From contig CAWJYM010000004.1 of the NCBI GenBank assembly GCA_963847125.1, positions 2,851,436 through 2,915,435 on the forward strand: a stretch of DNA of 64,000 nucleotides. The letters run 5' to 3'. Made by a program: the position numbers and the translations under genes. This document shows, in pieces, positions 5,513 through 51,176 of this stretch. Origin of the DNA: an uncultured Acidobacteriota bacterium (GTDB lineage Bacteria > Acidobacteriota > Vicinamibacteria > Vicinamibacterales > 2-12-FULL-66-21). Position 1 is the first letter of the stretch. Every line of letters starts with the position of its first letter. The notes beneath the pieces were generated by a model. The model made no database searches and was not told the origin of the DNA. It worked only from the letters and a program-made list of their open reading frames with translations.

Positions 5513-6244
5513 TCAGTAGATCCACGGCAGGATCTTCCACTTCACTCGGGCCGCGTACCTTCGATACTGGTCGCCAAATGCCTCGACGAGCGAGCGCTCC
5601 TCGAAAGGCACCGCCATTGCAAGGTAAGTGGTGCTGACGATGGCGAACACCAGGCGATCGGTAGTCATCCGCGGTGCGGCGAACACGAACAGGACCCATC
5701 CGAAGTAGACCGGATGCCGAACCCAGCCGTACACGCCCGAGGTCCTCAACGACGAAGCTGGCGTTCCCGTTGCGTTCGGTTTACCCGTCTGCTTGGCCGC
5801 AGCCGATCCGGGAGCACGAAGACCGGCCAGCTCGAACGGGTGAAGCGCCGCGCTCGCAACGAGCGCCAAGACGACTCCCGCGCCCTGCACGAGATGCCAG
5901 CCGATCGCGATCGGCCCGCGGACCTCGTAGAGGACGCCGCCGATTGACTGCCACAACCCGCACGTCGCAAGAAAAAGCAGGCTCGAGATCCAGACGTAGG
6001 TCGACCGCTCCAGCTCTGCCGGAACGAAGCGCATTAGCCATTGCTTTGCGCCGGTTCGGGCCATGATGCTGTGATGAAGAGCGAAGATCGAAAACAGGAG
6101 GAGGTCGATCGTCAGCGCGCGCGGGCCGCCAGCCGGCGCCGGTCGATCGAGGACGATCAGATAGAAGAAGAGAAAGTACAGCAACGAGCCGACGAACAAC
6201 ACGGCGCCGATCCAGGCAAATGCGCGCCTGAGGCTGTTATGCAT
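5513..6244 (-). CDS. Polytopic membrane methyltransferase (ICMT/PEMT superfamily)
   Basis: C-terminal HPVYFGWVLF...PFEERSLVEAFGDQYRRY motif. Start re-called to MHNSLRR (ATG 6244) because the 328-aa ORF N-terminus is Arg/Pro-rich and overlaps the divergent promoter. Confidence 0.65.
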   Translation of the reverse strand: MHNSLRRAFAWIGAVLFVGSLLYFLFFYLIVLDRPAPAGGPRALTIDLLLFSIFALHHSIMARTGAKQWLMRFVPAELERSTYVWISSLLFLATCGLWQSIGGVLYEVRGPIAIGWHLVQGAGVVLALVASAALHPFELAGLRAPGSAAAKQTGKPNATGTPASSLRTSGVYGWVRHPVYFGWVLFVFAAPRMTTDRLVFAIVSTTYLAMAVPFEERSLVEAFGDQYRRYAARVKWKILPWIY

Positions 6245-6278
6245 CGGCTCCGTATTATAGAGTTCGGATAACGGACGT

Positions 6279-7541
6279 ATGCCCACCCCCAGCGTGGCCA
6301 TCACCGGCATCGGCGTTGTGTCGCCTTTTGGCGTCGGCCGCGAATGCTTCTGGAGCGGCCTGCGCGCCGGGCGAAGCGGCGTGCGAGCCATCACCGACTT
6401 CGACGCCTCCATGTTCGCGTGCGGCGTCGCCGCGCCGGTTCCGCTCCTGACGCAGGCGGACATTCCGGCTATCAATGGGAACGGCCACCTCGCGGGCAAC
6501 GCGGACCCCCGGCGCTACTCGCGCACCTCGCTCGTCGCGGTCATCGCCGCCATCGAAGCCTGGAAGGATGCGGGGCTCCGCCAGGCTGAGCCGGGGGCGG
6601 GCGTGATCGTCGGAAGCGGGGCGGGCGGCATCGACGTCGCCGAACGGCAGTACAGGGAGTTCTTCACCGACGGCTGGAAACGGGTCGGTCCGTACGCGAT
6701 TCCCGTGTCGATCGTCGGCATGGTCTCCAGTGAGATCTCGATCGCTCTCGAGTTGCACGGGATCAGCCACGTGCTCTCGACCGGGTGCACGAGCTCGACG
6801 GATGCCATCGGCTACGCGGCGGCGCTCATCCGGTCGGGGGAAGCGGACGTCCTGCTGTCGGGTGGCGCCGACGCCTGCGTGACGCCGGGCATGATCTTCG
6901 GTTTCTCGAAGATGAAAGCGGTCTCGACGCACTACAACCACACGCCCGCGCTCGCGTCGCGTCCATTCGACCGTGGCCGGGACGGGTTCGTCCTCGGCGA
7001 AGGCGCATGGATGATCGTTCTCGAGCGCGAGGACCGCGCCCGTGCCCGCGGCGCGCGCGTCTACGCGACCATCGACGGCTACGCGTCGACGTGCGACGCC
7101 TACCACCGCGTGCAGATGGATCCGGACGGCGAGCAGATCATCCGCGCGATGGCCGGTGCGATCGAGCGCAGCGGCCGCGCGATCGACGAGATCGGCTACG
7201 TCAACTATCACGGCACGTCGACGGTCTTGAACGACGCGGTCGAGTCCCGCTGCGTGCGACGCCTGTTCGGCCCGCGCGCAGACGGATTGCCAGGGTCCTC
7301 GACGAAATCGATGATCGGTCATCCCCAGGGAGCCAGCGGCGCCGCCGGGGTGGTGACGAGCGCGCTTGCGCTGGCGCGCGGGTTCCTGCCGCCGACGATC
7401 AACCAGGTCGAGCCGGATCCCGAGTGCGACCTCGACGTCATCCCCAACCAGGGGCGCGAGGCCGAGCCCGCGGCCGCGCTCTGCAACTGCCTCGGATTCG
7501 GCTCGAAGAACAGCGCCCTCGTGCTGGGACGGTGTGATTGA
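6279..7541 (+). CDS. Beta-ketoacyl synthase, KAS I/II (FabF/FabB) type
   Basis: 420 aa. ITGIGVVSP, active-site STGCTSS, YH and NYHGTST His motifs, KSMIGHPQGASG. Confidence 0.9.
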   Translation: MPTPSVAITGIGVVSPFGVGRECFWSGLRAGRSGVRAITDFDASMFACGVAAPVPLLTQADIPAINGNGHLAGNADPRRYSRTSLVAVIAAIEAWKDAGLRQAEPGAGVIVGSGAGGIDVAERQYREFFTDGWKRVGPYAIPVSIVGMVSSEISIALELHGISHVLSTGCTSSTDAIGYAAALIRSGEADVLLSGGADACVTPGMIFGFSKMKAVSTHYNHTPALASRPFDRGRDGFVLGEGAWMIVLEREDRARARGARVYATIDGYASTCDAYHRVQMDPDGEQIIRAMAGAIERSGRAIDEIGYVNYHGTSTVLNDAVESRCVRRLFGPRADGLPGSSTKSMIGHPQGASGAAGVVTSALALARGFLPPTINQVEPDPECDLDVIPNQGREAEPAAALCNCLGFGSKNSALVLGRCD

Positions 7542-8676
7542 CGTCCTGGTGATCGGAGGCGGTCCGGCCGGCGCAATCGCCGGCGCTCTCCTCGCGCGCC
7601 GAGGCGCTCGCGTGCGCCTGATCGAGCGCGGCGTTTTTCCACGCGACAAGCTGTGCGGCGATACGCTGAATCCCGGCGCTCTGGCGCTGCTCGATCGCCT
7701 GGGGCTCGGAGGCGTGTCATCCGGCGGCCTCGCGGTCCACGGCATGATCGTGACGGGACCCGATGGTGGCCGCGTCCGCGTCGAAGGGCGGTACCCGGAC
7801 GGCACGATCGGGCGCGCGCTCCGCCGCCGCGACCTCGACGCGGCGATTCTCCGCGCCGCGGCGGCGGAAGGCGTTGAGATCGAGGAGGGCGTTGCCGTCA
7901 CGTCGCCGATCGTGTCGGATGGCCGCGTGCGCGGCGTCACGATGCGGGTGCGCGGCGAGGAACGGCGCCTCACGGCGCCGCTGACGATTGCCGCAGACGG
8001 CCGGCGATCGCGGCTGGCGTTCGGGCTTGGCCTCGCTCGACATCCTCGCCGCCCGCGTCGATGGGCGATCGGCGGCTACTACGGCGACGTCACCGGCGTG
8101 GCGGCGTTCGGCGAGATGCACATTCGCCCGCGCGGGTACCTCGGCGTCGCGCCGCTGCCCGACGGACTCGTGAATGCCTGCCTGGTGATCGACTCGCCGC
8201 GAGATCTCTTCGATCCGGCCGACCGGCTGGACGCCGCCGTGCAGGGAGATCCGGCAACTGCCGACCGCTTCGCGGATGCGCGCCGGTGCGGGCCGGTCTC
8301 GGTGCTCGGCCCCCTGGCCGTCGAGTCGCGGACGGCCGGGATGGCCGGATTGCTGCTCGCGGGTGACGCCGCCGGGTTCATCGACCCGATGACCGGTGAC
8401 GGGCTGAGGTTCGCGATTGCGGGCGCGGAGCTGGCGGCGCGCGCGGCGGGGGAGTTTCTCGACGGACGGCTCGCCGATTCGCACCGCGCCCTTACGGAGT
8501 GGCGCCGCGAGCTGTTCGGATCGAAGTGGCGGTTCAACAGATTTCTCCGGACGCTGGTGGCCACGCCGGCCGCGGTGCGGGTGGCGGCCGCCAGCGCGCG
8601 AGTCGTCCCGTCCGCGGTCCGGTTGGCGATCGCGTACGCGGGCGACGTGCCAGAGGCGCCGCACGCGTCTTGTTGA
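7534..8676 (+). CDS. FAD-dependent oxidoreductase, geranylgeranyl-reductase family
   Basis: GTG at 7534 directly precedes the Rossmann motif DVLVIGGGPAGA and then RDKLCGDTLNPG. It overlaps the KAS stop by 8 nt. The ORF-track start at 7366 was rejected. Confidence 0.8.
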   Translation: MIDVLVIGGGPAGAIAGALLARRGARVRLIERGVFPRDKLCGDTLNPGALALLDRLGLGGVSSGGLAVHGMIVTGPDGGRVRVEGRYPDGTIGRALRRRDLDAAILRAAAAEGVEIEEGVAVTSPIVSDGRVRGVTMRVRGEERRLTAPLTIAADGRRSRLAFGLGLARHPRRPRRWAIGGYYGDVTGVAAFGEMHIRPRGYLGVAPLPDGLVNACLVIDSPRDLFDPADRLDAAVQGDPATADRFADARRCGPVSVLGPLAVESRTAGMAGLLLAGDAAGFIDPMTGDGLRFAIAGAELAARAAGEFLDGRLADSHRALTEWRRELFGSKWRFNRFLRTLVATPAAVRVAAASARVVPSAVRLAIAYAGDVPEAPHASC

Positions 8677-8678
8677 AA

Positions 8679-8702
8679 CACGGGGCTCACGGGGCTCACG
8701 GG
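8679..8702 (+). repeat. 9-bp tandem repeat (CACGGGGCT x2.6) starting 3 nt after the oxidoreductase stop
   Basis: Read directly: cacggggct cacggggct cacggg. Confidence 0.85.
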
Positions 8703-8714
8703 AAGAAGAGCCTA

Positions 8715-8956
8715 AAACGCAGAGCACGCAGAGACCGCCGAGGACGCGCAGAAAACGAAGCCGCCGCGACTGGGCGGCGGGAGCCGCGAAGCGGCTCGTC
8801 AGGCGGGGTCGAGCCCTTGGTCGCATGAGCCGCGAGCGAACAGTCCGCTCATGCGCCAAGGGTTCGACGCCGCCTGACGGGCCCGGCTACGCCGGGCCAC
8901 CCGCCGCCCCGGTCGCGGCCACCAGCCGTCTCCGTGTCCTCTGTGCCTCTGTGTTT
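8715..8956. repeat. Nested inverted-repeat / multi-hairpin element (MITE-like or structured RNA)
   Basis: Outer imperfect inverted repeat: aaacgcagagcacgcagagac against gtctccgtgtcctctgtgcctctgtgttt. Inner hairpins at 8761-8780, 8781-8797 and 8880-8898. Central 33-bp-arm palindrome at 8798-8830 / 8847-8878. Confidence 0.6.
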
Positions 8957-8979
8957 GAAAAGCAGCGCGTCCGAGTGCC

Positions 8980-9507
8980 ATGACGACCGACGCATCAACT
9001 GTTCGAATCGCTTTGAGCGCCCTCCTTGTCGCGGTGTTCCTCGTGCTCGAGACGCTACGCTCGCGCGCGAACGAGCGCGCGTTGCGCGCGCGCGGCGCGA
9101 TCGAGCCGGCGGGGGATGTGTACACGGCGATGGCCGCCGCGTACCCGCTCGCGCTCGTCGCGCCCTTCGCGGCCGCGATCCGCGACGGGCCGGCGACGGC
9201 GGCCGTCTGGGCCGCGGGCGTTGTCATGTTTCTCGCGGCCAAGGCGCTGAAGTTCTGGGCGATCCACGCGTTGGGGCCGCGGTGGACGTTCCGCGTGCTG
9301 GTCGTTCCGGGGGAGCGGCTGGTGACGTCAGGCCCGTACCGCTACTTGCGGCACCCGAACTACTTCGCCGTGGCGGGAGAGATTGCCGGCGTCGCGACGA
9401 TGTGCGCGGCGCCGGCGATCGGACTGGCGGCTCTTCTCGGGTTCGGCGCACTGATGTGGCGCCGGATCGCGATCGAGGAGCGCGCCCTTGCGTCGTCTTC
9501 ACGGTAG
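8980..9507 (+). CDS. Isoprenylcysteine carboxyl methyltransferase (ICMT) family membrane protein
   Basis: 175 aa, hydrophobic, with the RYLRHPNYFAVAGE signature. Confidence 0.8.
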   Translation: MTTDASTVRIALSALLVAVFLVLETLRSRANERALRARGAIEPAGDVYTAMAAAYPLALVAPFAAAIRDGPATAAVWAAGVVMFLAAKALKFWAIHALGPRWTFRVLVVPGERLVTSGPYRYLRHPNYFAVAGEIAGVATMCAAPAIGLAALLGFGALMWRRIAIEERALASSSR

Positions 9508-9671: not shown

Positions 9672-11627
9672 GTGACTCCACCCAGCAAAACCCGTCGCGT
9701 CGATCGGCTCGCTCTCGCCGCTGACATTCTCATCGTTGCACTCGTGCTCGCAACCCTGGCCGTGGCCGCGACTGGTGGATTTCGCACCGAGGTCGCCGGC
9801 ATCCGCGTGTCCGCGCGCTCGCCGGACCGTATATTGATCCTGGCGCTGGCGCTCGGACTCGCGCGGCGTTTTTTCGGCCCACGCCGGAACCTGTGGTCGC
9901 ACCTCCTCGCCTGGGGCCGCGGCCCGTTGCCATCGGGCGAGGCCCGGCTCTTTTCAGGGGACGTGACTCAGACGCCGCTGCCGACTCAAAAGGGTCGTAC
10001 TGCCAGTCGTCGTGTGAGCACGCTCGGCGAGCTCGTGGCCGTGACGGTGTTCTGCTCGACGTTAACCGCCGGCGTGACGTGGCCCCAGATCGTTCAGCTG
10101 GATCACGTGCCGGATCTCGGCGATCCGCTGTTCAACGTGTGGCGCGTTTCATGGGTGGCGTATCAACTGCCGCGCGACCCAATCCACATCTTCGACGGCA
10201 ACATCTTCCATCCGGAGGCGCGCACGCTCACGTACTCGGATGCGACGCTGGTCTCGGGGTTGATCGCCTCGCCGCTTATCTGGTTCGGCGTGCATCCTCT
10301 GACCGCCTACATCCTCACGTTCCTCGCCGGCTTCGCCTTGTCGGGTGTTGCGATGTACTACCTCGTTCGCGCGCTGACGGGGTCACGCCCTGCGGCGCTG
10401 GTGTCGGCGGCACTCTTCACCCTGTTGCAGTACCGCTTCGAGCATTACAGCCACCTCGAGCTGCAGATGATCATGGCGCTGCCGCTCGCTCTGTGGGCTC
10501 TACATCGCACACTCGTCCAGGGACGAGTGCGCGACGGCCTGCTCACGGGGGCACTGCTCGCGGTCCAGGCATACTCATCGCTTTACTACGCTCTCTTCGC
10601 GGTCGTCTTCGTCGGTGCGATCGCACTGTGTCTATGGCTCGGTGGTCCACGGCCACGTCGAGCTGCACAAGCGCTTGGCGCGGGTGCCGCGTTGGGGGCG
10701 GTGCTCGTGTCGCCGCTCCTGGTCGCGTACGTGCGGAACAAAGCCATCGTCGGCGAACGTTCGTACGACGCGGTCGAGTTTTACAGCGCCCAAGGTCGCG
10801 ATTACCTCGTTCCACACCACCGTAACGTGCTCTACAGGGACTATCGCACGTGGTTGGGATACTCGAATCCAGAGCGGGAACTGTTTCCTGGTGTGCTACC
10901 GGTCGCGCTCGCAGTGGCCGGAGTCTGGCCGCCGTTGTCGGTCGCGAAGATCGCCTATACCGTCGGCCTGGCTGCCGCGTTCGACGGCTCTCTCGGGGCG
11001 AACGGCATCATGTACCCTCGTTTGTATCGCTTTGTGTCGCCGTTCCGAGGCCTTCGGTCTCCCGCCCGCTTCGCGATCCTCGTGGGATTCAGCTTGATCG
11101 TGTTGGCCGGGTACGCCGTCGCGCGGCTGACCGCAAGGCGGCGACAGGCTACCGCGTGGGCCGTTGCCGGGGCGCTCGTCATGGCTATCGCTGTCGAGGC
11201 GCGCCCTAAACTACAGCTCGAGCCGGTGTGGCGAAACCCGCCACCGATCTACGACGCGATCGGTGCCGACGCCCCGGCGGTACTTTTTGAATGGCCGCTT
11301 CCCACCGATTGGCAGAACTTCTACTTTGACACGCGGTACGAATACTTCTCTGTGTTTCACTGGAACCGCCTCGTCAACGGCAACAGCGGCTTCTCGCCAC
11401 CCTCGTACCTCGAACTCGTTGAACGGATGCGTGGATTCCCGTCGGACGGCGCGCTCGCTTACTTGCGGGGACGAGGGGTGCAGTATCTCGCAGTCCACGG
11501 CAGCTTCGCTCCGCAAGACCGCTACGCGGCTGCCGTTTCCTTCCTCGACGGCCGGTCTGACATACGGCTTGTGCGATCGGCCGCCTGGGAACGGGGAGAG
11601 AGCCGGTTATACAAGCTGGAACAGTGA
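9672..11627 (+). CDS. Large polytopic membrane protein, possibly a GT-C-fold glycosyltransferase
   Basis: 651 aa with many predicted TM helices followed by a soluble C-terminal domain. GTG start with no SD. The function is an inference only. Confidence 0.55.
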   Translation: MTPPSKTRRVDRLALAADILIVALVLATLAVAATGGFRTEVAGIRVSARSPDRILILALALGLARRFFGPRRNLWSHLLAWGRGPLPSGEARLFSGDVTQTPLPTQKGRTASRRVSTLGELVAVTVFCSTLTAGVTWPQIVQLDHVPDLGDPLFNVWRVSWVAYQLPRDPIHIFDGNIFHPEARTLTYSDATLVSGLIASPLIWFGVHPLTAYILTFLAGFALSGVAMYYLVRALTGSRPAALVSAALFTLLQYRFEHYSHLELQMIMALPLALWALHRTLVQGRVRDGLLTGALLAVQAYSSLYYALFAVVFVGAIALCLWLGGPRPRRAAQALGAGAALGAVLVSPLLVAYVRNKAIVGERSYDAVEFYSAQGRDYLVPHHRNVLYRDYRTWLGYSNPERELFPGVLPVALAVAGVWPPLSVAKIAYTVGLAAAFDGSLGANGIMYPRLYRFVSPFRGLRSPARFAILVGFSLIVLAGYAVARLTARRRQATAWAVAGALVMAIAVEARPKLQLEPVWRNPPPIYDAIGADAPAVLFEWPLPTDWQNFYFDTRYEYFSVFHWNRLVNGNSGFSPPSYLELVERMRGFPSDGALAYLRGRGVQYLAVHGSFAPQDRYAAAVSFLDGRSDIRLVRSAAWERGESRLYKLEQ

Positions 11628-12436
11628 GAAACGCTGACCGCCCTGAAGGTGGATACCCTGGATTCAAGGGTTTGTCCGCGCTACGTTTGGCGCGCCTTCG
11701 GTTTCATTGGAACCGGTTTGCAAGACGCGACCCGCTGTGGGCGATTCTCACTGACCCGCACAAGAAGCACGGCGGCTGGGCCCTCGACGAGTTCTTCCAG
11801 ACCGGCGAGGACGAGGTCGCTCGGCTGACAGATCAATTGAAAGGGATCGGCGTCGGCCTTCCCACGGGCCGGGCCCTGGACTTTGGCTGCGGCATCGGCC
11901 GGGTGACGAGCGCGCTCGCCAAACGTTTCGACCAGGTCGTGGGCGTTGACGTCGCGCCGACGATGATTGACCTGGCGCGCAGGCAGAACGCCGACGGGAC
12001 CGGCTGCAGCTTCGTCCTCAACAACAGTCCCGATCTGAGGCAGTTCTCCGACCAGTCATTCGATTTCGTGTACAGCAAGTTGGTTCTGCAGCATATGCAC
12101 CCACAGCTCGCCAAGGGCTACCTTCGCGAACTGCTTCGAGTGCTCAGCCCCACGGGACTGTTCGTTTTTCAATTGCCGACGCCGACCGAGCACCCGGTTG
12201 TAGGCGGCCGACTCAAACGATCGGTTCCCATGCCGCTTGTCGCAATCTACCGAAGAATCAAGAAACTGGTTCTCTTCGGCGTTGAATTCCCCAAGATGGA
12301 GGTCCATGGAATGAGAAAGGACGAAGTCGCCCAGGTCGTTGAGGAGGAGTCGGGGAGTATCATCGACGTGTTGCCCGACCAGAGTCACGGCGACGAAAGC
12401 CGCGGCTTTCTCTACGTTGTCCGCAAGAGGTCATAG
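11624..12436 (+). CDS. Class I SAM-dependent methyltransferase
   Basis: Motif I LDFGCGIGRVT plus VVGVDVAPTMI. There is a 4-nt overlap with the upstream gene. Confidence 0.8.
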   Translation: MRNADRPEGGYPGFKGLSALRLARLRFHWNRFARRDPLWAILTDPHKKHGGWALDEFFQTGEDEVARLTDQLKGIGVGLPTGRALDFGCGIGRVTSALAKRFDQVVGVDVAPTMIDLARRQNADGTGCSFVLNNSPDLRQFSDQSFDFVYSKLVLQHMHPQLAKGYLRELLRVLSPTGLFVFQLPTPTEHPVVGGRLKRSVPMPLVAIYRRIKKLVLFGVEFPKMEVHGMRKDEVAQVVEEESGSIIDVLPDQSHGDESRGFLYVVRKRS

Positions 12437-12523: not shown

Positions 12524-15040
12524 ATGCCCAGCAATGCGATGCGCGGGATGCAACGGCTGTTCCCCATCGTGTGCTGCCTGACCGGCATCGCGCCGTCGGC
12601 CGCCCAGTCTGTCCCATCAACCGTCCCACCGTTGTCGTTGCGCGCCGCGGATCGCGCGCTCGCGCACGGCCAGCCGGCAGAGGCGGAGGCCATCGCCAAA
12701 GCGATGCCGGCCGACGACCCGGCGGTCGCCGTCATCCGCGCGCGGATCGCTCTCAGGTCGGGCAAGCTCGACGACGCGGAACGGCTCCTCGCGCCCGTGG
12801 CGGAGGCCGACCCCGCCGGCGAGGCCGCGCTGGAGCTGGGACTGCTCGAGATCGCGCGGGGCCGCCGGCAGGCGGCGGTCGCGCGGCTGATGGCGGTGTT
12901 CGACGCCGGCGCGCGGGGTGATCCGGACGGCGTCGCCCGAGCGGCGCGCGCGACGCGCGCGCTCGGAGACTTTCGACAGGCGAACGCGTTCTACCGTCGG
13001 GCCGCCGCGCTCGGCGACGATCCCGCCGTCGATACCGGCTGGGGGACGCTCTTCCTCGAAAAGTACAACCGCACGGATGCGGCGCGATCCTTCCGCGAGG
13101 CGCTCGCGCTCGACGCCGATTGGGCCCCCGCGCGTGTCGGTCTGGCGCGCGCGCTCACAGAGACCAACCCCAAGGCGGCAGACGAGGAAATCGAGCGTGC
13201 GCTCAAGATCGACCCGCGGCTCGTCGACGCACACCTCTTCGTCGCCGAGCGGGAGCTGGACGAAGGGCGACCTGAAGCGGCTCGGCAGGCGATCGACCGC
13301 GCGCTCGAGATCGATCAGTGGAATCTGCCGGCGCGCGCGCTCGTCGCGGCGATGGCACACCTCGACGGCCGGACCGCGGACTTCGATGCCGAGGTCGCGC
13401 GCGCGTTCGCGATCAATCCGAAGTATGGAGAGATTTTCCGGGTCGCCGGCGACCACGCCGCGCGGCACTACCGCTTCGACGAGGCGGTCGCGCTCGCCCG
13501 CAAGGCGACGGCGCTCGATCCGGACAACAGCCGCGCGCACGCCGACCTCGGCATGCACCTCCTCCGCACGGGCGACGAAGAAGGCGCGCGCAACGCGCTC
13601 GAGCGCTCGTTCCGCGCCGACCCCTACGACGTCATCACCTACAATCTGCTCAGCCTGCTCGACACGCTCGAATCGTTCGTCACGGTCGAAGCCAACAACA
13701 TCCGCCTCCGCCTTCACCCGGACGAGGCGCCGATCCTGCGCGAGTATGCGGTGCCGCTCGCCGAGCGCGCGCTGGCGACGTTGTCGAAGACGTACGGGTT
13801 CTCGCCGCGCGGCCCCGTGCTCATCGAGATCTTTCCGCGGCACGACGACTTCGCCGTGCGGAACGCCGGGCTGCCGGGGATGATCGGCGCGCTCGGCGCG
13901 TGCTTCGGCCGCGTGGTGACGATGGACTCGCCGAAGGCGCGGCCCCCCGGCACCTTCAACTGGCAGGCGACGCTCTGGCACGAGCTGGCGCACGTCATCA
14001 CCCTCCAGCTCTCGAACCAGCGCGTGCCGCGCTGGCTGACCGAGGGCATTTCGGTCTACGAGGAAGGCCGCGCCCGCCCCGAGTGGGGCCGCGACATGGA
14101 GATTCCGTTCGCGCGCGCGCTCGACAAGGGGGAGGTGCTCAAGCTCCGGGATCTGAACGCCGGGTTTACCCGTCCCGACACGATCGCGCTGGCGTATTTC
14201 GAGGCATCCCTCCTCGTCGCGCACATTGCCGGCAAGCACGGCGACGCCGGGCTGGTCCGCCTGCTCCGCGCCTATGGCGACGGACTCGACGACGCGGCCG
14301 CGCTGTCCAAGGCGTTGAACGAGACGATCGACAGCCTGCAGACGTCGTTCTCGCGCGTCATCGACGAGCGCTTCACTCCGATCGCGGTGGCGCTCCGCGA
14401 GCCCGCCGGCTTCGTGCCAGGCGGCGACGCGGAGGCGATGCGCGCCGCCGCGAGCGAACATCCGGGCAGCTATCCGGTTCAACTCGCGTACGGCCGCGCG
14501 TTGATTGCCGGCCAGAAGCCGGCTGAGGCGATCGCGCCTCTCGAGCGCGCCGTGTCACTCGTGCCGATGGCGACCGGCGTCGAGGGCGCCCGATTTCAGC
14601 TCGCCGAAGCGGCGGAAGCCTCCGGCGATCGCGCGCGCGCGATCGCGGAGCTCGAGGCGCTCCTGGCGCACGACCATACCGACGTCGAGGTGCCGCGGAA
14701 GCTGCTGACGCTGGCCGAAGCGACACGCGACGAACCTCGTCTCGCGCTCGCGAGCGAGCGCGTGGCGATGCTCGATCCGTTCGACGCGGCGCCGCATCGC
14801 GTGCTCGGGCGTCTCGCGTTCGATCGGAAGGATGCCGACGGGGCGGTGCGCGAGTTCCGAGCCGCGCTGGCGGCCGGGCCGGTCGATCGCGCCGGCGCCC
14901 ACTGCGATCTCGGCGAGAGCTATTTCCTCGCCGGCAAGCCGGGCGAGGCGAAACGCGAGGCGCTTCTGGCGCTCGAAATCGCGCCGACGTTCGAGCGGGC
15001 ACAGGACTTGCTGCTGAAAACTGTTGAGGTACGGCGATGA
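12524..15040 (+). CDS. Secreted TPR-repeat protein with embedded gluzincin (peptidase MA-like) domain
   Basis: 838 aa with a signal-like N-terminus and TPR-like Ala/Leu/Arg repeats on both sides of WHELAHV....TEGISVYEE (HExxH plus downstream Glu). The start could also be ATG 12539 or 12548. Confidence 0.75.
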   Translation: MPSNAMRGMQRLFPIVCCLTGIAPSAAQSVPSTVPPLSLRAADRALAHGQPAEAEAIAKAMPADDPAVAVIRARIALRSGKLDDAERLLAPVAEADPAGEAALELGLLEIARGRRQAAVARLMAVFDAGARGDPDGVARAARATRALGDFRQANAFYRRAAALGDDPAVDTGWGTLFLEKYNRTDAARSFREALALDADWAPARVGLARALTETNPKAADEEIERALKIDPRLVDAHLFVAERELDEGRPEAARQAIDRALEIDQWNLPARALVAAMAHLDGRTADFDAEVARAFAINPKYGEIFRVAGDHAARHYRFDEAVALARKATALDPDNSRAHADLGMHLLRTGDEEGARNALERSFRADPYDVITYNLLSLLDTLESFVTVEANNIRLRLHPDEAPILREYAVPLAERALATLSKTYGFSPRGPVLIEIFPRHDDFAVRNAGLPGMIGALGACFGRVVTMDSPKARPPGTFNWQATLWHELAHVITLQLSNQRVPRWLTEGISVYEEGRARPEWGRDMEIPFARALDKGEVLKLRDLNAGFTRPDTIALAYFEASLLVAHIAGKHGDAGLVRLLRAYGDGLDDAAALSKALNETIDSLQTSFSRVIDERFTPIAVALREPAGFVPGGDAEAMRAAASEHPGSYPVQLAYGRALIAGQKPAEAIAPLERAVSLVPMATGVEGARFQLAEAAEASGDRARAIAELEALLAHDHTDVEVPRKLLTLAEATRDEPRLALASERVAMLDPFDAAPHRVLGRLAFDRKDADGAVREFRAALAAGPVDRAGAHCDLGESYFLAGKPGEAKREALLALEIAPTFERAQDLLLKTVEVRR

Positions 15041-15846
15041 GCCACCACCGATTTCGCGGATCACGTAGCCACGGATTCCGCGGATTGCACGGATTGGTCT
15101 GCGCCGCGCTGGCGCTGGTGGTTGGGGCCTCGGACGCTTCTGAGACCCCGCAGTCCCAGGAGCGGTTTGCCGGCCTGCAGTGGACCTTCGCGCGGATCAA
15201 ATACGAAGCGCACACGCTGCCGAGGTTCCGCGGCGGTCCCTACGACGAGCCGTGGTCGATCGACTACGACGCCGCCGAGTTGAATCTGTCGCGGCGACTA
15301 CGCACGGTCACGGCCATCCAAGTCGGCGACCCCGTGGTCGTGACGATCGAAGATCCGCAGCTGTGGAGCTATCCGTGGTTGTACGTCGTCGAACCGGGCA
15401 ATATGCGGCTGAAGGAAGCTGAGGTCAAGATCCTCCGCGACTTCCTCCTGCGAGGAGGTACGCTGACCTTCGACGACTTTCACGGTCCGGTCGAGTGGGC
15501 CAACCTGGAGCGCGAGATGAAGCGGGTGTTTCCGAACCGGCCCATCATCGATTTGCCGCCGGACCATCCCGTCTACAACTGTTTCTACAAGATCGATCGG
15601 TACCCGCAAACGCCCGGCCTCGGCTCGTTCCTGATGGGACGCACCTGGGAGAAGGGGGGCTTCGTCGCTCGGCTGCGCGCGATCGAGGACGACACGGGCC
15701 GGGCGATGGTGCTGATCAACTGGAATACCGACATGGGGGACGGCTGGGAGTGGTCGAACGTCGCCGAGTACCCGGGCTACATCAAGTACACGGCCGACGC
15801 GTATCGGATGCAGATTAATGAGATCATCTACTCACTGACGCATTAG
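15037..15846 (+). CDS. DUF4159-family protein
   Basis: 269 aa. WSYPWLYVVEPG...LRDFLLRGGTLTFDDFHG resembles DUF4159 proteins that precede MoxR operons. The first ~50 nt are the repeat at 15046-15097 with low GC3, so the true start may be TTG 15085 or 15094. Confidence 0.7.
   Translation: MSHHRFRGSRSHGFRGLHGLVCAALALVVGASDASETPQSQERFAGLQWTFARIKYEAHTLPRFRGGPYDEPWSIDYDAAELNLSRRLRTVTAIQVGDPVVVTIEDPQLWSYPWLYVVEPGNMRLKEAEVKILRDFLLRGGTLTFDDFHGPVEWANLEREMKRVFPNRPIIDLPPDHPVYNCFYKIDRYPQTPGLGSFLMGRTWEKGGFVARLRAIEDDTGRAMVLINWNTDMGDGWEWSNVAEYPGYIKYTADAYRMQINEIIYSLTH
15046..15097 (+). repeat. Dispersed GGAT-rich repeat family B, copy 1 (CACCGATTTCGCGGATCACG..CCACGGATT..GCGGATT..CACGGATT)
   Basis: Near-identical to 32299-32333 (20 of 21 in the first block by eye). 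Both begin within a few nt after an upstream stop codon, in the same orientation. Confidence 0.75.
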
Positions 15847-15933
15847 CAGCCTGAAGGGCTGCGCTACGGGTGCGAAACAAACGCGCTACGGGTGCCAAAC
15901 AGAGGATTGTGTAGCGCAGCCCTTTAGGGCTGC
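15846..15933. repeat. Composite REP/BIME-like element: hairpin unit, tandem GCGCTACGGGTGC(N)AAACA x2, then an inverted hairpin unit
   Basis: 15846-15867 is gcagcctgaagggctgcgctac. 15861-15873 and 15883-15895 are direct repeats. 15911-15933 is gtagcgcagccctttagggctgc. Confidence 0.8.
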
Positions 15934-15944
15934 CGGGAGATTCG

Positions 15945-16955
15945 ATGGACCAGGTATCGGGGGTGGCGACGGCCGACCGCGTCGCGGAAGGACGCGAGCG
16001 GATCCTGGCGGAGCTGCGCAAGGTCGTCGTCGGCCAGGACGAGGTCATTGAGCAGGTGTTGACGGCGCTCTTTACGGGCGGTCATCTCCTGCTGACCGGC
16101 GTTCCGGGTCTCGCGAAGACGCTCCTCATCAAGACGCTCGCCGAGATCCTCGATCTCAGCTTCAAGCGGATCCAGTTCACGCCCGATCTCATGCCGGCGG
16201 ACATCACGGGCACCGAGATCCTCGACGAGGAGGGGGGCCACCGCGCGCTGCGCTTCGTCAAGGGGCCGATCTTCGCGCAGATCATTCTCGCCGACGAGAT
16301 CAACCGCACGCCGCCGAAGACGCAGGCGGCGTTGCTCGAGGCGATGCAGGAGTACCACGTCACGGCCGCGGGCCGGACCTATCCGCTGGAGCGGCCGTTC
16401 TTCGTGCTCGCGACGCAGAACCCGGTCGAGCTGGAAGGTACGTATCCGCTGCCGGAGGCGCAACTCGATCGCTTCATGTTCAACGTCGTGATGACCTATC
16501 TGTCGGAAGACGACGAGGTCCAGGTCGTCACCGAGACGACGGGTGTGGAAACGCCGGCGCCGGCGCGGGTCCTCAGCGGCAGCGACATCATGGAATTCCA
16601 GCGGCTGGTGCGGCAGGTCGTCGTCGCCGACGAGGTCGCCCGCTACGCCGTGCGTCTCTCGTCCGCGTCCCGGCCCGGCGAGGGCGCGCCCGAGTTCGTG
16701 AACAAGTGGGTGAAGTGGGGGGCCGGCCTGCGCGCGTCGCAGGCGCTCATCCTCGGCAGCAAGGCGCGGGCATTGATGAAGGGCCGCTTTCACGTCTCCG
16801 TGCAGGACATCCGTGCGCTTTCGCATCCGATCCTGCGCCATCGCATCATCCCGAACTTCTACGCTGAGTCCGAGCGCGTGGATTCTGACAAGATCACCGA
16901 TATGCTCCTCGAGCTCGTGCCGCCGCCCAAGAGCGGCCTGGCGGTCGGCGGGTGA
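15945..16955 (+). CDS. MoxR-family AAA+ ATPase
   Basis: 336 aa. Walker A LLTGVPGLAKT, Walker B ILADEINR, ATQNP sensor region. Confidence 0.95.
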   Translation: MDQVSGVATADRVAEGRERILAELRKVVVGQDEVIEQVLTALFTGGHLLLTGVPGLAKTLLIKTLAEILDLSFKRIQFTPDLMPADITGTEILDEEGGHRALRFVKGPIFAQIILADEINRTPPKTQAALLEAMQEYHVTAAGRTYPLERPFFVLATQNPVELEGTYPLPEAQLDRFMFNVVMTYLSEDDEVQVVTETTGVETPAPARVLSGSDIMEFQRLVRQVVVADEVARYAVRLSSASRPGEGAPEFVNKWVKWGAGLRASQALILGSKARALMKGRFHVSVQDIRALSHPILRHRIIPNFYAESERVDSDKITDMLLELVPPPKSGLAVGG

Positions 16956-17854
16956 CCGCCGCGGCCGGGCTCCGCTATCTCGACCCCGCCGTCATCGCGC
17001 GGCTCGGGACGATGGAGTTGCGGGCGCGGACGATCGTCGAGGGCTTCCTCTCCGGCCTGCACAGAAGCCCTTACAAAGGCTTCAGCGTCGAGTTCGCCGA
17101 ATACCGCCAGTACCTTCCGGGCGACGATCTTTCCACGCTCGACTGGAAGGTCTACGCGCGAAGCGATCGCTTCTACGTCAAGAAGTTCGAAGAAGAGACG
17201 AACGTCGACTGCCACATCCTCCTCGACACCAGCGGGTCGATGGGATACGCGTCGAAGGGGGCGGTCACCAAGCTTGCGTACGGATCGTTTCTCGCGGGCG
17301 CGCTGGCCTACCTCATGAACCGTCAGCGGGATGCCGTGGGCTTCATCGCGTTCGACGTCCGGATCATAGAACGGCTTCCCGCGAGCGCGCGACCCGGACA
17401 CCTGCGGGCAGTGCTGCTCGCGCTCGATCGGCTCACCCTCGGGCGGCAGTCCGACGTGTCGCGGCCGCTGCATCAGCTCGCCGACACCATCCTGAAGCGA
17501 AGCATGGCGGTGCTCATCTCGGACCTGCTCGACGAGCCGGAAACGGTCATCCGCGGGCTGAAGCATCTGCGGTTCCGCGGCACCGACGTCATCGTCTTTC
17601 ATGTGCTCGACCGTGACGAGCTGACGTTTCCGTTCGATCGCGCGACGAGGTTCCGCGACCTCGAATCAGAAGCGGAGGTGCTCGCGGTGCCGGCGGTCGT
17701 GCGGGACGATTACCTGAAGGCGGTTCAGGATCTCTGCGCCGTGTACGAACGCGAGCTGCGGCTTGCAGGGATCGACTACGTGCGGCTCGACACGTCCGAG
17801 CCGCTGGATTTCGCGCTCGCGTCGTATCTGTCGTCGCGCGCAAGGCGATTGTGA
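16952..17854 (+). CDS. DUF58 protein (vWA-like, MoxR partner)
   Basis: 300 aa. LDWKVYARSDRFYVKKFEEE and MIDAS-like LLDTSGSMGY. There is a 4-nt overlap with moxR. Confidence 0.9.
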   Translation: MTAAAGLRYLDPAVIARLGTMELRARTIVEGFLSGLHRSPYKGFSVEFAEYRQYLPGDDLSTLDWKVYARSDRFYVKKFEEETNVDCHILLDTSGSMGYASKGAVTKLAYGSFLAGALAYLMNRQRDAVGFIAFDVRIIERLPASARPGHLRAVLLALDRLTLGRQSDVSRPLHQLADTILKRSMAVLISDLLDEPETVIRGLKHLRFRGTDVIVFHVLDRDELTFPFDRATRFRDLESEAEVLAVPAVVRDDYLKAVQDLCAVYERELRLAGIDYVRLDTSEPLDFALASYLSSRARRL

Positions 17855-17867
17855 CCGGGTTCCTGGA

Positions 17868-19718
17868 ATGTTGTCCTTTCTGTACCCCGCGTTTCTGTTA
17901 GGCGCCCTGGCGGCGGCAGTGCCGATCGTCCTGCACTTGATCAGGCGGGAAGCGGCGCCGGAGGTCCGCTTCAGCGCCGTCCGCCTGTTGCGGCGCGCGC
18001 CAACGGAACAGTCTCGCTGGCAGCGGCTCCGCGAATGGCTGCTGCTGGCCGCGCGGGTGGCCGCGGTTCTGCTTCTCGCGCTGGCGTTCGCCCGGCCGTA
18101 TCTCGCGGCGCAGGCAGGGCCAGGGTCCACCGTGACGATCGTCGCGGTGGACACGTCGCTCAGCATGGGCGCGCCAGGCCGCTTCGATCGCGCCCGCGCG
18201 CTCGCGCGAACCGCCGTCGAAGAAGCGCCAGCCGGCTCGTTCGTCGGCCTGCTCAGCTTCGACGATCGTCCGGCGCTGATCGTGGAGCCGATCGCCGAGC
18301 GCGGCACGGTCCTCGCGGCGATCGACGCGCTGCGTCCCGGATACGGCGCGACGCGCTACGGCCCGGCGCTCGCGCGCGCGCAGGACGCGATCCCGGGATC
18401 AGGACGGGTGGTCGTCATCACGGATCTCCAACGCGCCGGGTGGGACAACGCGGAGCGGCCACCGCTGACGGCCGGAGTCGAGGTGCGGGTGGTGGATGCG
18501 GGGGCCGACCGCACGGAGAACCTCGCGGTCGTCGGGGTTCAGCGTTCGCAGGCCGGGGTGATTGCCGTTTTACGCAATACGGGGCCGCGCGAGCGAGAGA
18601 CTCGCGTCCGGTTGTCCGCGGACCGTCGCGATGTGGCGGCCTCCCGGGTGCGCGTGCCCGCCGGCGCAACGATTGATGCGGCCTTCCCCCTGCCGGCCGG
18701 GGCCGCCGCGCTGGCCGTAACAATAGAAGATGCAGGCGGATGGCCCGGCGACGACGTGCGGCACCTGGTCACGGGAATGAGACAGGGCCCCCGCGTCATC
18801 GCAGTAACCGAACGGGCCGGTCAGGGTTTACTCTACTTACAGCGGGCTTTGGCGGCCGCTCCCGACGATTCGCGGTTTCGCGTCGAGAACGTTACCGGCA
18901 CCGGGCTGAGCCGGGCGCTCGAGTCGGGTGACCCGACCGCCGCGGTCGTCGTGGCGAGCGGGCGCGGGTTCGAGCGATCCACCCGCGAGTCGCTGGAGCG
19001 ATACGTTCGAGCGGGCGGAGGGCTTGTCGTTCTCGCCGGGCCGTCAATCGACCCCGAGGCGGCCGCGGCAATAACCGGTTTGGACCGCACGCCGCGCGCG
19101 CGCGGCGGAGAGGGGGACGTCAGGCTCGCGCCGGTCGACACGCGGCATCCGGTGTTTCACGCGTTCGGGCCGGCCGCGGCGGCGCTCGGGGGCGTACGGT
19201 TCACGCGGACCTGGGAGCTCGACGACGAGGGCTGGGACGTCATCGCGCGGTTCACGGACGGGCGCGCCGCGCTCGTCGAGCGGCGGATTGAAGGAGGGCG
19301 GGTGCTGCTGTTCGCATCGGACCTCGACCTTGCGTGGAACGATCTCCCGTTGCACCCGGCCTTCGTGCCGTTCGTGCACGAGACACTTCGCTACGCCGCG
19401 CAGGTCAGGACCGCGCCACTCGAGCTCTTCGTGGCCGACGCGCCGGCCGGCGCGCCCCGCGCGCCCGGCATCGCGGCGCTGGCCGGCGGGCGAACGGTCG
19501 CCGTGAACGTCGATCCGCGGGAGTCGGATCCCGCGCGGATGGATCCGGGAGCGTTCGGGGCTGGCCTCGGCGCGCAGCGGGCATCGAGCGCAGCCGATCG
19601 TGGAGCGGACGTTCGCGAACGGGAGGCGTCGCAGCGGTACTGGCGCTACGGGCTGATGGTGATGCTCGTTGCGCTCGTCTGTGAAGGACTGCTGGCGGGA
19701 GGGTACCGGTTTGCCTGA
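17868..19718 (+). CDS. BatA-like protein: N-terminal double-TM domain plus vWA domain plus C-terminal TM
   Basis: MLSFLYPAFLLGALAAAVPIVLHLIRR (aerotolerance-regulator N-terminal type) and MIDAS VAVDTSLSMG. Start re-called from 17763 to ATG 17868. Confidence 0.85.
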   Translation: MLSFLYPAFLLGALAAAVPIVLHLIRREAAPEVRFSAVRLLRRAPTEQSRWQRLREWLLLAARVAAVLLLALAFARPYLAAQAGPGSTVTIVAVDTSLSMGAPGRFDRARALARTAVEEAPAGSFVGLLSFDDRPALIVEPIAERGTVLAAIDALRPGYGATRYGPALARAQDAIPGSGRVVVITDLQRAGWDNAERPPLTAGVEVRVVDAGADRTENLAVVGVQRSQAGVIAVLRNTGPRERETRVRLSADRRDVAASRVRVPAGATIDAAFPLPAGAAALAVTIEDAGGWPGDDVRHLVTGMRQGPRVIAVTERAGQGLLYLQRALAAAPDDSRFRVENVTGTGLSRALESGDPTAAVVVASGRGFERSTRESLERYVRAGGGLVVLAGPSIDPEAAAAITGLDRTPRARGGEGDVRLAPVDTRHPVFHAFGPAAAALGGVRFTRTWELDDEGWDVIARFTDGRAALVERRIEGGRVLLFASDLDLAWNDLPLHPAFVPFVHETLRYAAQVRTAPLELFVADAPAGAPRAPGIAALAGGRTVAVNVDPRESDPARMDPGAFGAGLGAQRASSAADRGADVREREASQRYWRYGLMVMLVALVCEGLLAGGYRFA

Positions 19719-22700: not shown

Positions 22701-23175
22701 CGGCCAGCAGCAGGGCCGGCAAGGACAACAGCAGGGCTCCGGTCAGCCAGGCGGACAGCAGCAGCAGCAACAGGGCGGTGGCGGCCGCGGCGGCGACCTC
22801 GCCCGGCTGCGCGACGAGTACCAGCGCGAGATCGAGCGCGCGCGCGAGGTGCTGCAGGGATTGCAGCGCTCGGCGCCCGACTCTGGAATGGGCGGCTCCA
22901 CGCCAGAGGAGCACGAGTACAGCATCTCCGCGCCAGGCCGCGAGGCCTTCAAGAACGACTTCAGCAACTGGGAGCGCCTGCGGAAGGACGTCTCGCTCGC
23001 GCTCGAGCGGCGTGAAACGGCCATCGCCGATAAGCTGGCCGGCAAGCGCCGGCAGGACCGGCTCGCGGCCGGCGCCGCCGACGGCGTGCCAGAGGCCTAC
23101 CGGGCGCTCGTCGCCAAGTACTTCGAGTCCCTTGCGCGGTCCGGGCGTGCGCCGGCCGCTCCGAAGCAGCCGTGA
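19669..23175 (+). CDS. Giant membrane-anchored protein, DUF4175-like, with long coiled-coil and low-complexity C-terminal half
   Basis: 1168-aa ORF with TM helices near the N-terminus and a beta-rich middle (YQYPAFTGLAPRTETDGGDVYAPAGTRV). After ~21600 it becomes E/R/Q-rich heptad-like sequence with a poly-G run and Q/G runs. The start is ambiguous (ATG 19669, or TTG 19711 overlapping the upstream stop). Confidence 0.7.
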   Translation: MRSSVKDCWREGTGLPEAIGRLIAAVRRRWLALDGLGALGRAAGATAVALALAVALDRWLLLEGWWLLAVAAVTAFCALAAIVLSIRAMRWPDERKLARLVEERCPELEDRLATAVAVRDAGGLAPLVLEDAAARARNVDPASVVTPAAVRHAAWRAGVAVVLLAAALVLGWSSIERVWLTAWLRVFPGALQVVVEPGDARVRAGQPLTIRARLSGAPAALARQAPMLVIGRGEGARTLPMVSAPADAGRSPGHAADVGAVDRTFTYYVAAAGIRSRDYTITAVRPPRVTRIDLRYQYPAFTGLAPRTETDGGDVYAPAGTRVQLNVRTDRPVASAALTLGENRTVDLKASSSTSELEGVIVVDRDDAYRVALADGEGLSNPGETEYFIRMMDDRPPDVRILRPGGDRQATPLEEVLVEARAEDDYRIGRFDLVFAVRGAGEKVVPLGRGGAAVETGRHLMFLEDLGVKPGDFVSYYARVRDVGRGAQGREARSEMFFVEVTPFDQEFSRAQSQAGAGGAGAGAGLEALIAAQKDIINATWNLDRRARAGRSEQDVRAVGKAQAELRGRTESIAARLRFATRMSAGRRRPGTTAAPEQPDDPIGKAIESMKLAEGSLDKLSTSEAMPHEMAALHELLRAEAEIRRRQVTQQMAGGGGGGGSGRSGQDLSALFDRELQRQQQTNYENRDTGEQQRREDEPESDALAKVRELARRQDELSRKQRELANAKLNEEELRRQLEKLTREQTELREQAERLDQEMSRSRQGQNQNENQHQSGQQGRSLRDASDEMRGATSDLRRQDLAGASARGDRAAERLRELERRMRGRNPDQRRRELGELQVEAQQLADLERRVADEASRLGRGTPDSTTRTRLADEQDRLAARVESLEKQLREMSSTGQGDEKQAATDAARELSRRNVGRGMKESAESLRSDAKEGQAPDKRGAEPGQAERELARSLDRVAERMGAQGDADGRRLADEMARAREARDRLNDMARRLERLEQEDRAARSGEQSSGQQQGRQGQQQGSGQPGGQQQQQQGGGGRGGDLARLRDEYQREIERAREVLQGLQRSAPDSGMGGSTPEEHEYSISAPGREAFKNDFSNWERLRKDVSLALERRETAIADKLAGKRRQDRLAAGAADGVPEAYRALVAKYFESLARSGRAPAAPKQP

Positions 23176-25367: not shown

Positions 25368-25406
25368 GGGGCCGCGCTGCGTCTGTCCGGTCGGGTTCTC
25401 GCCCTC

Positions 25407-47603: not shown

Positions 47604-47606
47604 AGG

Positions 47607-50088: not shown

Positions 50089-50096
50089 ACCGGTCC

Positions 50097-51116: not shown

Positions 51117-51137
51117 GAGGGCGACACTATCGCCCGC

Positions 51138-51176
51138 AGATTACGCACTCATTTCACATCTGTTAAATCCGTGTAA
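51138..51176 (-). promoter_or_regulatory. Candidate pstS promoter with Pho-box-like direct repeats
   Basis: Minus strand reads TTACAC ggat TTAACA gatg TGAAAT gagtgcg TAATCT. That gives hexamer repeats at a 10-bp period and a TTAACA-17nt-TAATCT arrangement ending ~21 nt before the ATG. Confidence 0.5.

Follow-up and report, generated by a model that had tools for sequence, protein, structure and literature searches.

We analysed a 64-kb stretch of DNA from an uncultured member of the Vicinamibacterales (Acidobacteriota; contig CAWJYM010000004.1), referred to here as the window, and examined a group of genes near its start that encodes a β-ketoacyl synthase (KAS), a flavoprotein that binds flavin adenine dinucleotide (FAD) and a membrane methyltransferase (MT2) of the isoprenylcysteine O-methyltransferase (ICMT) type. 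This cassette is real, widespread and uncharacterised. By analogy with known operons, we propose that KAS, flavoprotein and MT2 are a ketosynthase-based equivalent of the operons for phenolic lipids that use a type III polyketide synthase (PKS), namely srsABC and hidABC, and we assign this reading a probability of about 0.6. An earlier note on the same DNA had suggested an uncharacterised lipid modification pathway; the comparative linkage described below supports that suggestion, while its membrane-lipid chemistry is inference only.

The genes were identified from a listing of open reading frames (ORFs) together with Pfam and NCBIfam scans. The KAS gene (6279..7541, + strand, 420 aa) matched both ketoacyl-synt domains of Pfam (N domain, 2e-44; C domain, 5.5e-31), the flavoprotein gene (7534..8676, + strand, 380 aa) matched FAD_binding_3, and the gene for MT2 (8980..9507, + strand, 175 aa) matched the Pfam ICMT domain with 80.9 bits. 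Upstream and divergent from these lies MT1 (5513..6244, − strand, 243 aa), a polytopic, MddA-like membrane methyltransferase with a Pfam ICMT score of 30.7 bits, which a 34-bp spacer (6245..6278) separates from the KAS gene. All four genes thus lie where the earlier note had placed them. It had also described two methyltransferases of the ICMT/PEMT superfamily, one divergent and one downstream; the arrangement is correct, but MT1 is better described as MddA-like than as a plain ICMT. The GTG start codon of the flavoprotein overlaps the end of the KAS gene (stop codon at 7539-7541) by 8 nt, as had been noted, and the identical overlap was present in JGI gene calls of relatives with 92-95% identity.

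The window provides no obvious partners for fatty acid or polyketide synthesis. Among its 44 predicted genes, Pfam detected no acyl carrier protein (ACP), ketoreductase, dehydratase, FabH/FabD or type III PKS (Chal_sti_synt), so that the earlier statement that the first three and a type III PKS are missing nearby holds across the full 64 kb. A tblastn search of the window with E. coli AcpP gave no match, and neither Pfam nor the context listings indicated fab or ACP genes in the window or in the loci collected for comparison. A chain-length factor and a PP-binding protein were likewise absent from the window by Pfam and only one ketosynthase gene was present, which is less than a minimal type II PKS.

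The sequence of the KAS sets it apart from canonical FabF, the KAS II of fatty acid synthesis, in both its score and its motifs. It shares with FabF the fold, the length and the catalytic residues. Cys170 (6786-6788), His311 (7209-7211) and His348 (7320-7322), along with Lys343 and Phe407, aligned with their equivalents in the FabF structures of T. thermophilus and B. subtilis and in 11 relatives; the Cys-His-His triad described earlier is therefore both intact and conserved. The closest entry in the Protein Data Bank was T. thermophilus FabF (1j3n, 315 bits), to which we estimate by eye an identity of about 45-50%. The KAS scored 417 bits on the looser subfamily model PRK07314, above the cutoff of 387. 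On the FabF equivalog model TIGR03150 it scored 427.4 bits against a cutoff of 493.75, a shortfall of 66 bits. A canonical FabF from an Eremiobacterota (P0333), 44% identical to the window KAS, reached 647.3 bits on the same model, and the nearest stand-alone KAS neighbours (P0256, P0257, P0263, P0302 and P0308) were all below threshold with 364-449 bits.

Three altered motifs of the KAS were located at 7095-7112 (DAYHRV), 7317-7334 (GHPQGA) and 7494-7511 (GFGSKN). Its relatives share these changes and form what we call the HRV clade. Where canonical FabF has SACA(T/S)G, the clade has GCTSS(T)DA; DAYH(I/M)T(A/N)P is replaced by CDAYHRV (DAYHRVQM in the window); GH(T/L)LGAAG, following the second catalytic His, is replaced by GHPQGA(S)G (GHPQGASG in the window); and GFGGHN is replaced by GFGSKNSA. 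At least two of these segments we take to be the substrate-gating loops of FabF. The alignment and a neighbour-joining (NJ) tree placed in the clade the window KAS, the Vicinamibacterales representative, a Pyrinomonadaceae cluster, P0257/L086, P0263, P0302/L087 and P0346, with slight variants of the motifs in P0302 and P0346, whereas P0333 and P0366 retained the canonical forms in the alignment. Both analyses separated the HRV clade from canonical FabF, which goes part of the way towards the phylogenetic check that the earlier note had proposed.

The outgroup search for the KAS covered 1.84 billion representative proteins (representatives at 50% identity). Its results were dominated by giant PKS proteins with multiple ketosynthase domains, leaving about 25 usable stand-alone entries. 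Among these, the Vicinamibacterales representative was 69% identical to the window KAS and the remainder at most 51%. No fusion of KAS with flavoprotein or with methyltransferase was found among the proteins of this search. A sequence look-up gave no record of the exact window KAS, while its closest metagenome relatives were up to 97% identical and its best matches in the protein database came from metagenome-assembled genomes (MAGs) named Vicinamibacterales and Acidobacteriota subdivision 6. Protein searches with the clade returned at least 8000 candidates each at E <= 1e-30 and at E <= 1e-60, indicating that such proteins are very common in metagenomes. They are annotated by NCBI as 'beta-ketoacyl-ACP synthase family protein', not as FabF, and in other records as '3-oxoacyl-ACP synthase II'; with such generic labels, readers of annotations would assume a role in primary metabolism. 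The KAS gene was broken into two frames in the long-read 'MFD' MAGs L008, L013, L017, L029, L033 and L075, most likely by assembly frameshifts and not because the genes are pseudogenes.

The genomic contexts of the clade outside the Vicinamibacterales provide the key evidence for the cassette. We collected the contigs of the nearest outgroup KAS proteins through representatives and cluster look-ups. In loci of the Pyrinomonadaceae type (L085 and L174-L176, including a 5.7-Mb genome), the gene order was ATP synthase, VanZ, Band_7, KAS, class I methyltransferase, FAD_binding_3 protein and a TonB-like receptor. In L087 and L088 (73% G+C), the KAS gene precedes those of a class I methyltransferase and of a flavoprotein of 323 aa, missed by Pfam, which carries the motif FPRxKVCGE. 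In L086 (69% G+C), it was accompanied by a B12-binding radical S-adenosylmethionine (SAM) protein, a flavoprotein and a YceI protein. On the contig of P0346, the KAS gene is followed by a class I methyltransferase. The outgroup flavoproteins were 30-32% identical to that of the window. Counting the Vicinamibacterales, the clade thus adjoins a flavoprotein in four unrelated contexts, with a SAM methyltransferase in three of them and the B12/radical-SAM protein in the fourth (L086), and this recurrence bears out, for three of the four genes, the co-occurrence that the earlier note had proposed to look for. Since the flanks are entirely different, the recurring KAS and flavoprotein, with a methyltransferase in three of four, constitute a module held together by selection. 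None of the nearest KAS relatives outside the order adjoined acpP, fabG or fabD in the contexts examined; this and the linkage to tailoring enzymes in four contexts further distinguish the KAS from FabF. The radical-SAM protein of L086 (11269-12663) was closest to TIGR04072, 'lipid biosynthesis B12-binding/radical SAM protein', with 326 bits against a cutoff of 360. The clusters on which this family was defined are presumably those for ladderane-type lipids.

FabF-like KAS proteins of a neighbouring clade (P0323, P0361, P0377, P0266, P0297 and P0326; L170-L173) share 45-48% identity with the window KAS. They include fusions with domains for signalling or lipid binding, of the forms PocR-GGDEF-KAS, PilZ-KAS and KAS-SRPBCC. 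The KAS-SRPBCC fusion and the KAS P0326, which adjoins an SRPBCC gene, stand beside HisKA_7TM kinases and response regulators and not in a cassette of the present kind. Such associations hint that these ketosynthases produce or perceive a lipid signal connected with cyclic di-GMP.

Further evidence comes from type III PKS loci with the same tailoring families. Scanning metagenomes with an alignment of diverse flavoproteins yielded 80 loci, most of them generic for proteins like geranylgeranyl reductase (GGR) or halogenases, and these were screened with a tblastn panel and Pfam. In L110 and L156, a type III PKS gene is followed by genes for an ICMT and a flavoprotein. This matches the order of srsABC, in which an isoprenylcysteine carboxyl methyltransferase gene stands between those for a type III PKS and a monooxygenase (PMC6669644). 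In L136, a type III PKS is accompanied by a class I methyltransferase similar to PRK06202 and a flavoprotein; methyltransferase, FAD oxidoreductase and type III PKS are likewise combined in hidABC, the hierridin operon of picocyanobacteria, and in an operon of Planctomycetota (PMC8086630, PMC10896814). The same methyltransferase and flavoprotein families recur in L091 and L103, here beside an SRPBCC protein resembling polyketide cyclases and a FabF-like KAS nearer to the canonical form.

The methyltransferases of the two kinds of loci are related, and their flavoproteins have features in common. The ICMTs encoded between type III PKS and flavoprotein in L110 and L156 matched MT2 along its entire length with 38-39% identity (82-87 bits), compared with only 15.6 bits for the archetypal ICMT structure 4a2n. 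On NF040696, the equivalog model for isoprenylcysteine O-methyltransferase with a cutoff of 160 bits, MT2 scored 46.1 and MT1 37.6 bits; only the Pfam superfamily domain passes. By sequence similarity, then, MT2 falls into the ICMT subfamily found with type III PKS genes, in a position like that of SrsB. The methyltransferase of L136 was 29-38% identical (62-100 bits) to the KAS-linked class I methyltransferases, about as close as these are to one another, and the otherwise little-noted NF004851/PRK06202 was the best model for all of them (106-154 bits); the KAS cassettes of the Pyrinomonadaceae, L087, L091 and L103 thus use the same type of methyltransferase as the PKS locus L136. Like the window flavoprotein, the PKS-linked flavoproteins had TIGR02032 as their best hidden Markov model (HMM) and carried a K-x-C-G motif, and the best BLAST match of the L136 flavoprotein was the KAS-linked flavoprotein of L085. 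A lipid/isoprenoid-binding protein belongs to one planctomycete-like variant, just as YceI belongs to L086. Because the same tailoring families flank type III PKS genes, the KAS sits in the condensing-enzyme slot of a phenolic-lipid-type cassette, as the earlier note had argued for a KAS I/II enzyme.

The likeness to srsABC of S. griseus lies in the combination of a condensing enzyme, a membrane methyltransferase of the ICMT family and an FAD flavoprotein, and it was traced through the proteins of L110 and L156. In contrast to srsABC, the window has a thiolase-fold KAS of about 420 aa with a Cys-His-His triad in place of a type III PKS, and its order is KAS-FAD-methyltransferase instead of PKS-methyltransferase-FAD. 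Unlike hidABC, it has a methyltransferase of the ICMT type and not of class I, along with no type III PKS, and the link to hidABC is through the metagenomic locus L136 only.

Flavoproteins of a sister group are paired with a YceI-like polyisoprenoid-binding protein and have no condensing enzyme nearby (L149, L154, L165 and L169, also L158 and L168); L086 (12660-14812) unites such a pairing with a KAS and the radical-SAM protein. The sister group carries the motif IDK(A/P)CGEG and grouped with the type III PKS-linked proteins of L110 and L156 with 100% bootstrap. An Aminotran_3 gene was identified by Pfam upstream in L086, where L154 has a 463-aa gene that appears aminotransferase-like by eye.

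The simplest reading of these comparisons is that the condensing enzyme has been swapped by non-orthologous displacement and that the methyltransferase and flavoprotein pair is combined with either a type III PKS, an HRV-clade KAS, or another FabF-like KAS with an SRPBCC protein. The operons of the first kind, srsABC and similar ones, make alkylresorcinol, alkylquinone and related phenolic lipids, and HidC takes an acyl-ACP starter (PMC8086630, PMC10896814). By analogy, the KAS of the window would be supplied with malonyl units and a fatty acyl thioester by the housekeeping fatty acid synthase, as the lack of a carrier protein gene nearby suggests, and would perform one or more decarboxylative Claisen condensations that equip a long alkyl chain with a β-keto or polyketide head group. 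The membrane-embedded MT2 would O-methylate an enol, phenol or carboxyl oxygen of this lipophilic product, and hydroxylation or reduction by the flavoprotein would follow. The end product may be a methylated, oxygenated and amphiphilic lipid of the alkylresorcinol, alkylpyrone or alkylquinone type that is retained in the membrane. Substrates, number of condensations, ring formation, flavoprotein chemistry and product are all inferred from the analogy. A stronger version, in which the HRV-clade KAS, abundant in Vicinamibacterales and Pyrinomonadaceae, displaced the type III PKS as the scaffold-forming enzyme and acts alone on borrowed carriers, with no dedicated ACP or chain-length factor, is conceivable and we regard it as rather doubtful. 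It would construct an alkyl-polyketide head group, and the methylated, oxygenated products would be membrane lipids or quinone-like molecules that have gone unrecognised in soil Acidobacteria.

The chemistry of the flavoprotein was examined through its motifs, its matches and its predicted fold. It has a GxGxxG motif (GGGPAG), FPRDKLCGD at residues 35-43, which contains the K-x-C-G motif, and GDAAGFIDP at residues 277-285. It scored 72.6 bits on Pfam FAD_binding_3; QhpG monooxygenase was the second-best curated match with 89.7 bits, and MenJ scored 85.3 bits. The best HMM was TIGR02032, the GGR superfamily, with 144.6 bits, marginally under the cutoff of 158.8. The earlier label of GGR family is accordingly correct as to the closest superfamily model but not as to its cutoff. 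Since the type III PKS-linked flavoproteins share both this best match and the K-x-C-G motif, neither one points specifically to C=C reduction, and the sequence comparison suggests that a label such as 'geranylgeranyl-reductase-like' may be misleading. An AlphaFold2 model was obtained with a mean confidence (pLDDT) of 87.3. The structures that Foldseek ranked highest for this model were the halogenases FasV, CndH, Bmp2, CmlS and PltA, known as phenol and pyrrole halogenases, followed by the GGR 3oz2 and by 3nix; the fold search of the model did not discriminate among reductase, monooxygenase and halogenase. The flavoprotein resembles GGR/MenJ and the variant-B halogenases in its group-A fold and in the motifs GxGxxG, K-x-C-G and GDAAxFxDP. 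It differs from GGR/MenJ in its sub-cutoff TIGR02032 score and its context, which includes no isoprenoid pathway, and from the variant-B halogenases in lacking two motifs: WxWxIP, where it has GYLGVAPLP and FasV has GWLWYIPL, and FPRxHIGES, where it has FPRDKLCGD and FasV has FPRYHIGES. The flavoprotein partner in srsABC is described as a monooxygenase (PMC6669644).

Conservation within the Vicinamibacterales was examined in a scan of GTDB genomes with a flavoprotein alignment, which yielded 80 loci, all from this order; genes were counted by tblastn with the window proteins. The KAS gene was directly upstream of the flavoprotein gene in 68 of 73 loci. MT2 was found downstream of the flavoprotein in 67 of 75 loci, and within 440 bp of it in 58. 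KAS identity across the order was 68-82%, on par with that of the protease Lon. The order-wide synteny extends through Lon, an M28 peptidase, the cassette, a TPR-peptidase, DUF4159, MoxR, DUF58 and BatA. In L043 and L061, KAS, MT1 and MT2 have been lost jointly while the flavoprotein and the flanks are kept, and in L019, KAS and MT2 have been lost while MT1 and the flanks are kept. These losses show that the KAS is dispensable at the locus and tends to vanish together with MT2. Co-conservation of all four genes, which the earlier note had made a test of its proposal, therefore extends beyond the order for KAS, flavoprotein and a methyltransferase; for MT1, it is confined to 68 of 73 Vicinamibacterales loci.

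Several observations weigh against a ketosynthase-based counterpart of the phenolic-lipid operons. As the region from Lon to BatA is wholly syntenic, conservation within the order is by itself weak evidence, and the KAS is conserved at a housekeeping-like rate, as slowly changing as Lon. The flavoprotein is kept without the KAS in four genomes. In the NJ tree, the KAS-, PKS- and YceI-linked flavoproteins grouped apart from the rest, but the node had a bootstrap of only 33% and pairwise identities were about 28-35%; we therefore take this tree as weak support. The type of methyltransferase varies and its slot in L086 is filled by a B12/radical-SAM protein, so the chemistry may differ between lineages. 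Stand-alone KAS I/II enzymes normally perform a single condensation on ACP-bound substrates, and with no chain-length factor, ACP or cyclase in the window, ring formation by the KAS is speculative.

These points raise the possibility that the KAS is simply the housekeeping KAS II (FabF) of the Vicinamibacterales, with unrelated neighbours kept by phylogenetic inertia. The identity equal to that of Lon, the order-wide syntenic neighbourhood, the intact triad with full-length similarity to FabF structures and the passing score on PRK07314 are what such an enzyme would show. Its shortfall on the equivalog model, where a canonical FabF scores 647 bits, and its altered motifs, which are otherwise conserved near the active site, are not. 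Moreover, it is missing at the locus in four Vicinamibacterales genomes, and its outgroup relatives adjoin a flavoprotein, and usually a methyltransferase, in unrelated contexts and, in the contexts examined, never acpP, fabG or fabD. We consider the housekeeping explanation improbable. A somewhat better candidate, still unlikely in our judgement, is that the cassette modifies fatty acyl or isoprenoid chains with no polyketide head group and yields a branched or saturated membrane lipid. In one form of this idea, a special acyl-ACP elongated by the KAS would receive a methyl or methylene group from the methyltransferase and have a C=C bond reduced by the GGR-like flavoprotein, following the logic of MenJ/GGR or of tuberculostearic acid, whose synthesis involves a methyltransferase and an FAD reductase. 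The GGR superfamily as best HMM, the K-x-C-G motif, MenJ among the matches, and the TIGR04072-like and YceI polyisoprenoid-binding proteins of L086 are consistent with this. It leaves unexplained why the same tailoring families adjoin type III PKS genes, whose products are aromatic; TIGR02032 and K-x-C-G are found in the PKS-linked flavoproteins as well, SRPBCC cyclase-like partners occur in L091 and L103, and to our knowledge ICMT-type enzymes are O- or S-methyltransferases and not C-methylases.

Finally, we considered a type II cluster of fatty acid synthase or PKS genes resembling those for ladderanes or aryl polyenes. Anammox clusters combine divergent FabF paralogues with radical-SAM and flavin enzymes (PMC2649909), and the radical-SAM protein of L086 is closest to TIGR04072; the gene for it was present in only one of the lineages examined. 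A ladderane-type cluster was rejected for the window, as Pfam identified among its 44 genes no radical-SAM protein, ACP, dehydratase, ketoreductase, second ketosynthase or chain-length factor, and also because the flavoproteins of ladderane-type clusters are PF01593 amine-oxidase/phytoene-desaturase types and not FAD_binding_3 (PMC2649909). The chance that this explanation is correct seems very slight. The counterpart of srsABC/hidABC remains the reading that we favour.

MT1 is a lineage-specific addition that is linked to the cassette only within the Vicinamibacterales. Its likely start is the ATG at 6244, the first TTG of the ORF at 6499 being disfavoured. The matches to Pfam ICMT, DUF1295 and PEMT were weak and restricted to the C-terminus. 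The best NCBIfam model was MddA (NF045656), with 161.5 bits against a cutoff of 270 and coverage of positions 37-234 of 238. MT1 was divergent from the KAS gene in 68 of 73 GTDB Vicinamibacterales loci with 38-57% identity (75-80% in the closest relatives, L003-L005), and was missing from L001, which keeps a tight KAS-FAD-ICMT operon, and from the outgroup loci L085, L086 and L087. The spacer to the KAS gene is 29 bp in L003 and L004, and a sigma-70 consensus scan found nothing promoter-like in the 34-bp spacer of the window. MT1 may perform a second tailoring methylation or may be an independent thiol methyltransferase of the MddA type. In the latter case, it would be a chance neighbour that S-methylates H2S and methanethiol to dimethylsulfide in detoxification. 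This is a serious contender, to which we give somewhat less than even odds. MT1 resembles MddA in its membrane architecture of the ICMT superfamily and over nearly the whole profile, and MddA is abundant in soil bacteria (PMC11445057); MT1 is also absent where KAS, flavoprotein and ICMT are kept (L001) and from all outgroup cassettes, and it persists in L019 despite the loss of KAS and MT2. On the other hand, the score is far under the equivalog cutoff, the gene forms a close divergent pair with a ketosynthase gene, 29-34 bp away, in 68 of 73 loci, and its loss coincides with that of KAS and MT2 in L043 and L061.

The gap between the flavoprotein and MT2 genes is 303 bp in the window and about 20-160 bp in the relatives L003-L005. 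It contains a nested palindrome of 157 nt (8763..8919; inverted repeats I1-I4) predicted to form a multibranch hairpin, in which one pair of arms is 28 nt long and 89% complementary; the folding energy of the RNA was -141 kcal/mol (z = -11.7). It had no match in Rfam and no further copy in the window or in 169 comparison loci. Close relatives, with their shorter gap, lack the palindrome, which is thus an insertion specific to the window genome, and its position ahead of MT2 suggests that MT2 may be transcriptionally uncoupled there. The palindrome, which could be a terminator or attenuator or the scar of a repeat element, is probably outside the pathway.

Two genes downstream of MT2 were considered as members of the cassette and dropped since they are not conserved (9672-12436). 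One (9672..11627, + strand, 651 aa) encodes a polytopic membrane protein resembling glycosyltransferases of the GT-C type (Pfam PMT_2, 22.1 bits, below cutoff); tblastn found a homolog downstream in only 10 of 75 GTDB loci, and L001 and L002 have a weak Mannosyl_trans2 protein at its position. The other (11624..12436, + strand, 270 aa), which overlaps it by 4 nt, encodes a class I SAM methyltransferase (Methyltransf_11, 77.7 bits) that did not match PRK06202, its best NCBIfam model being CpaM with 62.9 bits. It was missing at that position in L001, L003 and the other relatives examined. The segment at 10-12 kb has a G+C content of 0.64, below that of its surroundings and compared with about 67% for the window; together with the absence from relatives, this suggests that the class I methyltransferase was recently acquired.

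Farther downstream (15037-26369) is an array resembling an aerotolerance operon, with DUF4159, a MoxR AAA_3 ATPase, DUF58 and BatA/VWA proteins along with proteins of 1168 aa (DUF4175-like) and 731 aa (GATase1-like); this array keeps its synteny throughout the order. The region at 18-26 kb has 72-73% G+C, well over the window mean. A PhoD phosphatase (28399-29994) and a phosphate-regulation cluster (46926-54200) with PhoU, a PstB-like ABC ATPase, a permease, a phosphate-binding protein and Ppx/GppA, followed by a CHAD protein, are unrelated to the cassette.

In our literature searches we met with no KAS II-type enzyme described from a cassette like srs or hid, and with nothing relevant on lipid clusters of Vicinamibacter or on the methyltransferases of branched glycerol dialkyl glycerol tetraethers. 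Vicinamibacterales and Pyrinomonadaceae are among the most abundant soil bacteria, and their lipids and small molecules are largely unknown. Phenolic and quinone-like lipids affect membrane rigidity, antibiotic tolerance, the envelopes of cysts and dormant cells, and possibly respiration. With three or four small genes, the cassette is directly testable. If its KAS nucleates a pathway for tailored lipids, it would represent a new enzymatic route to phenolic or quinone-like lipids and would widen the catalytic repertoire of KAS I/II enzymes.

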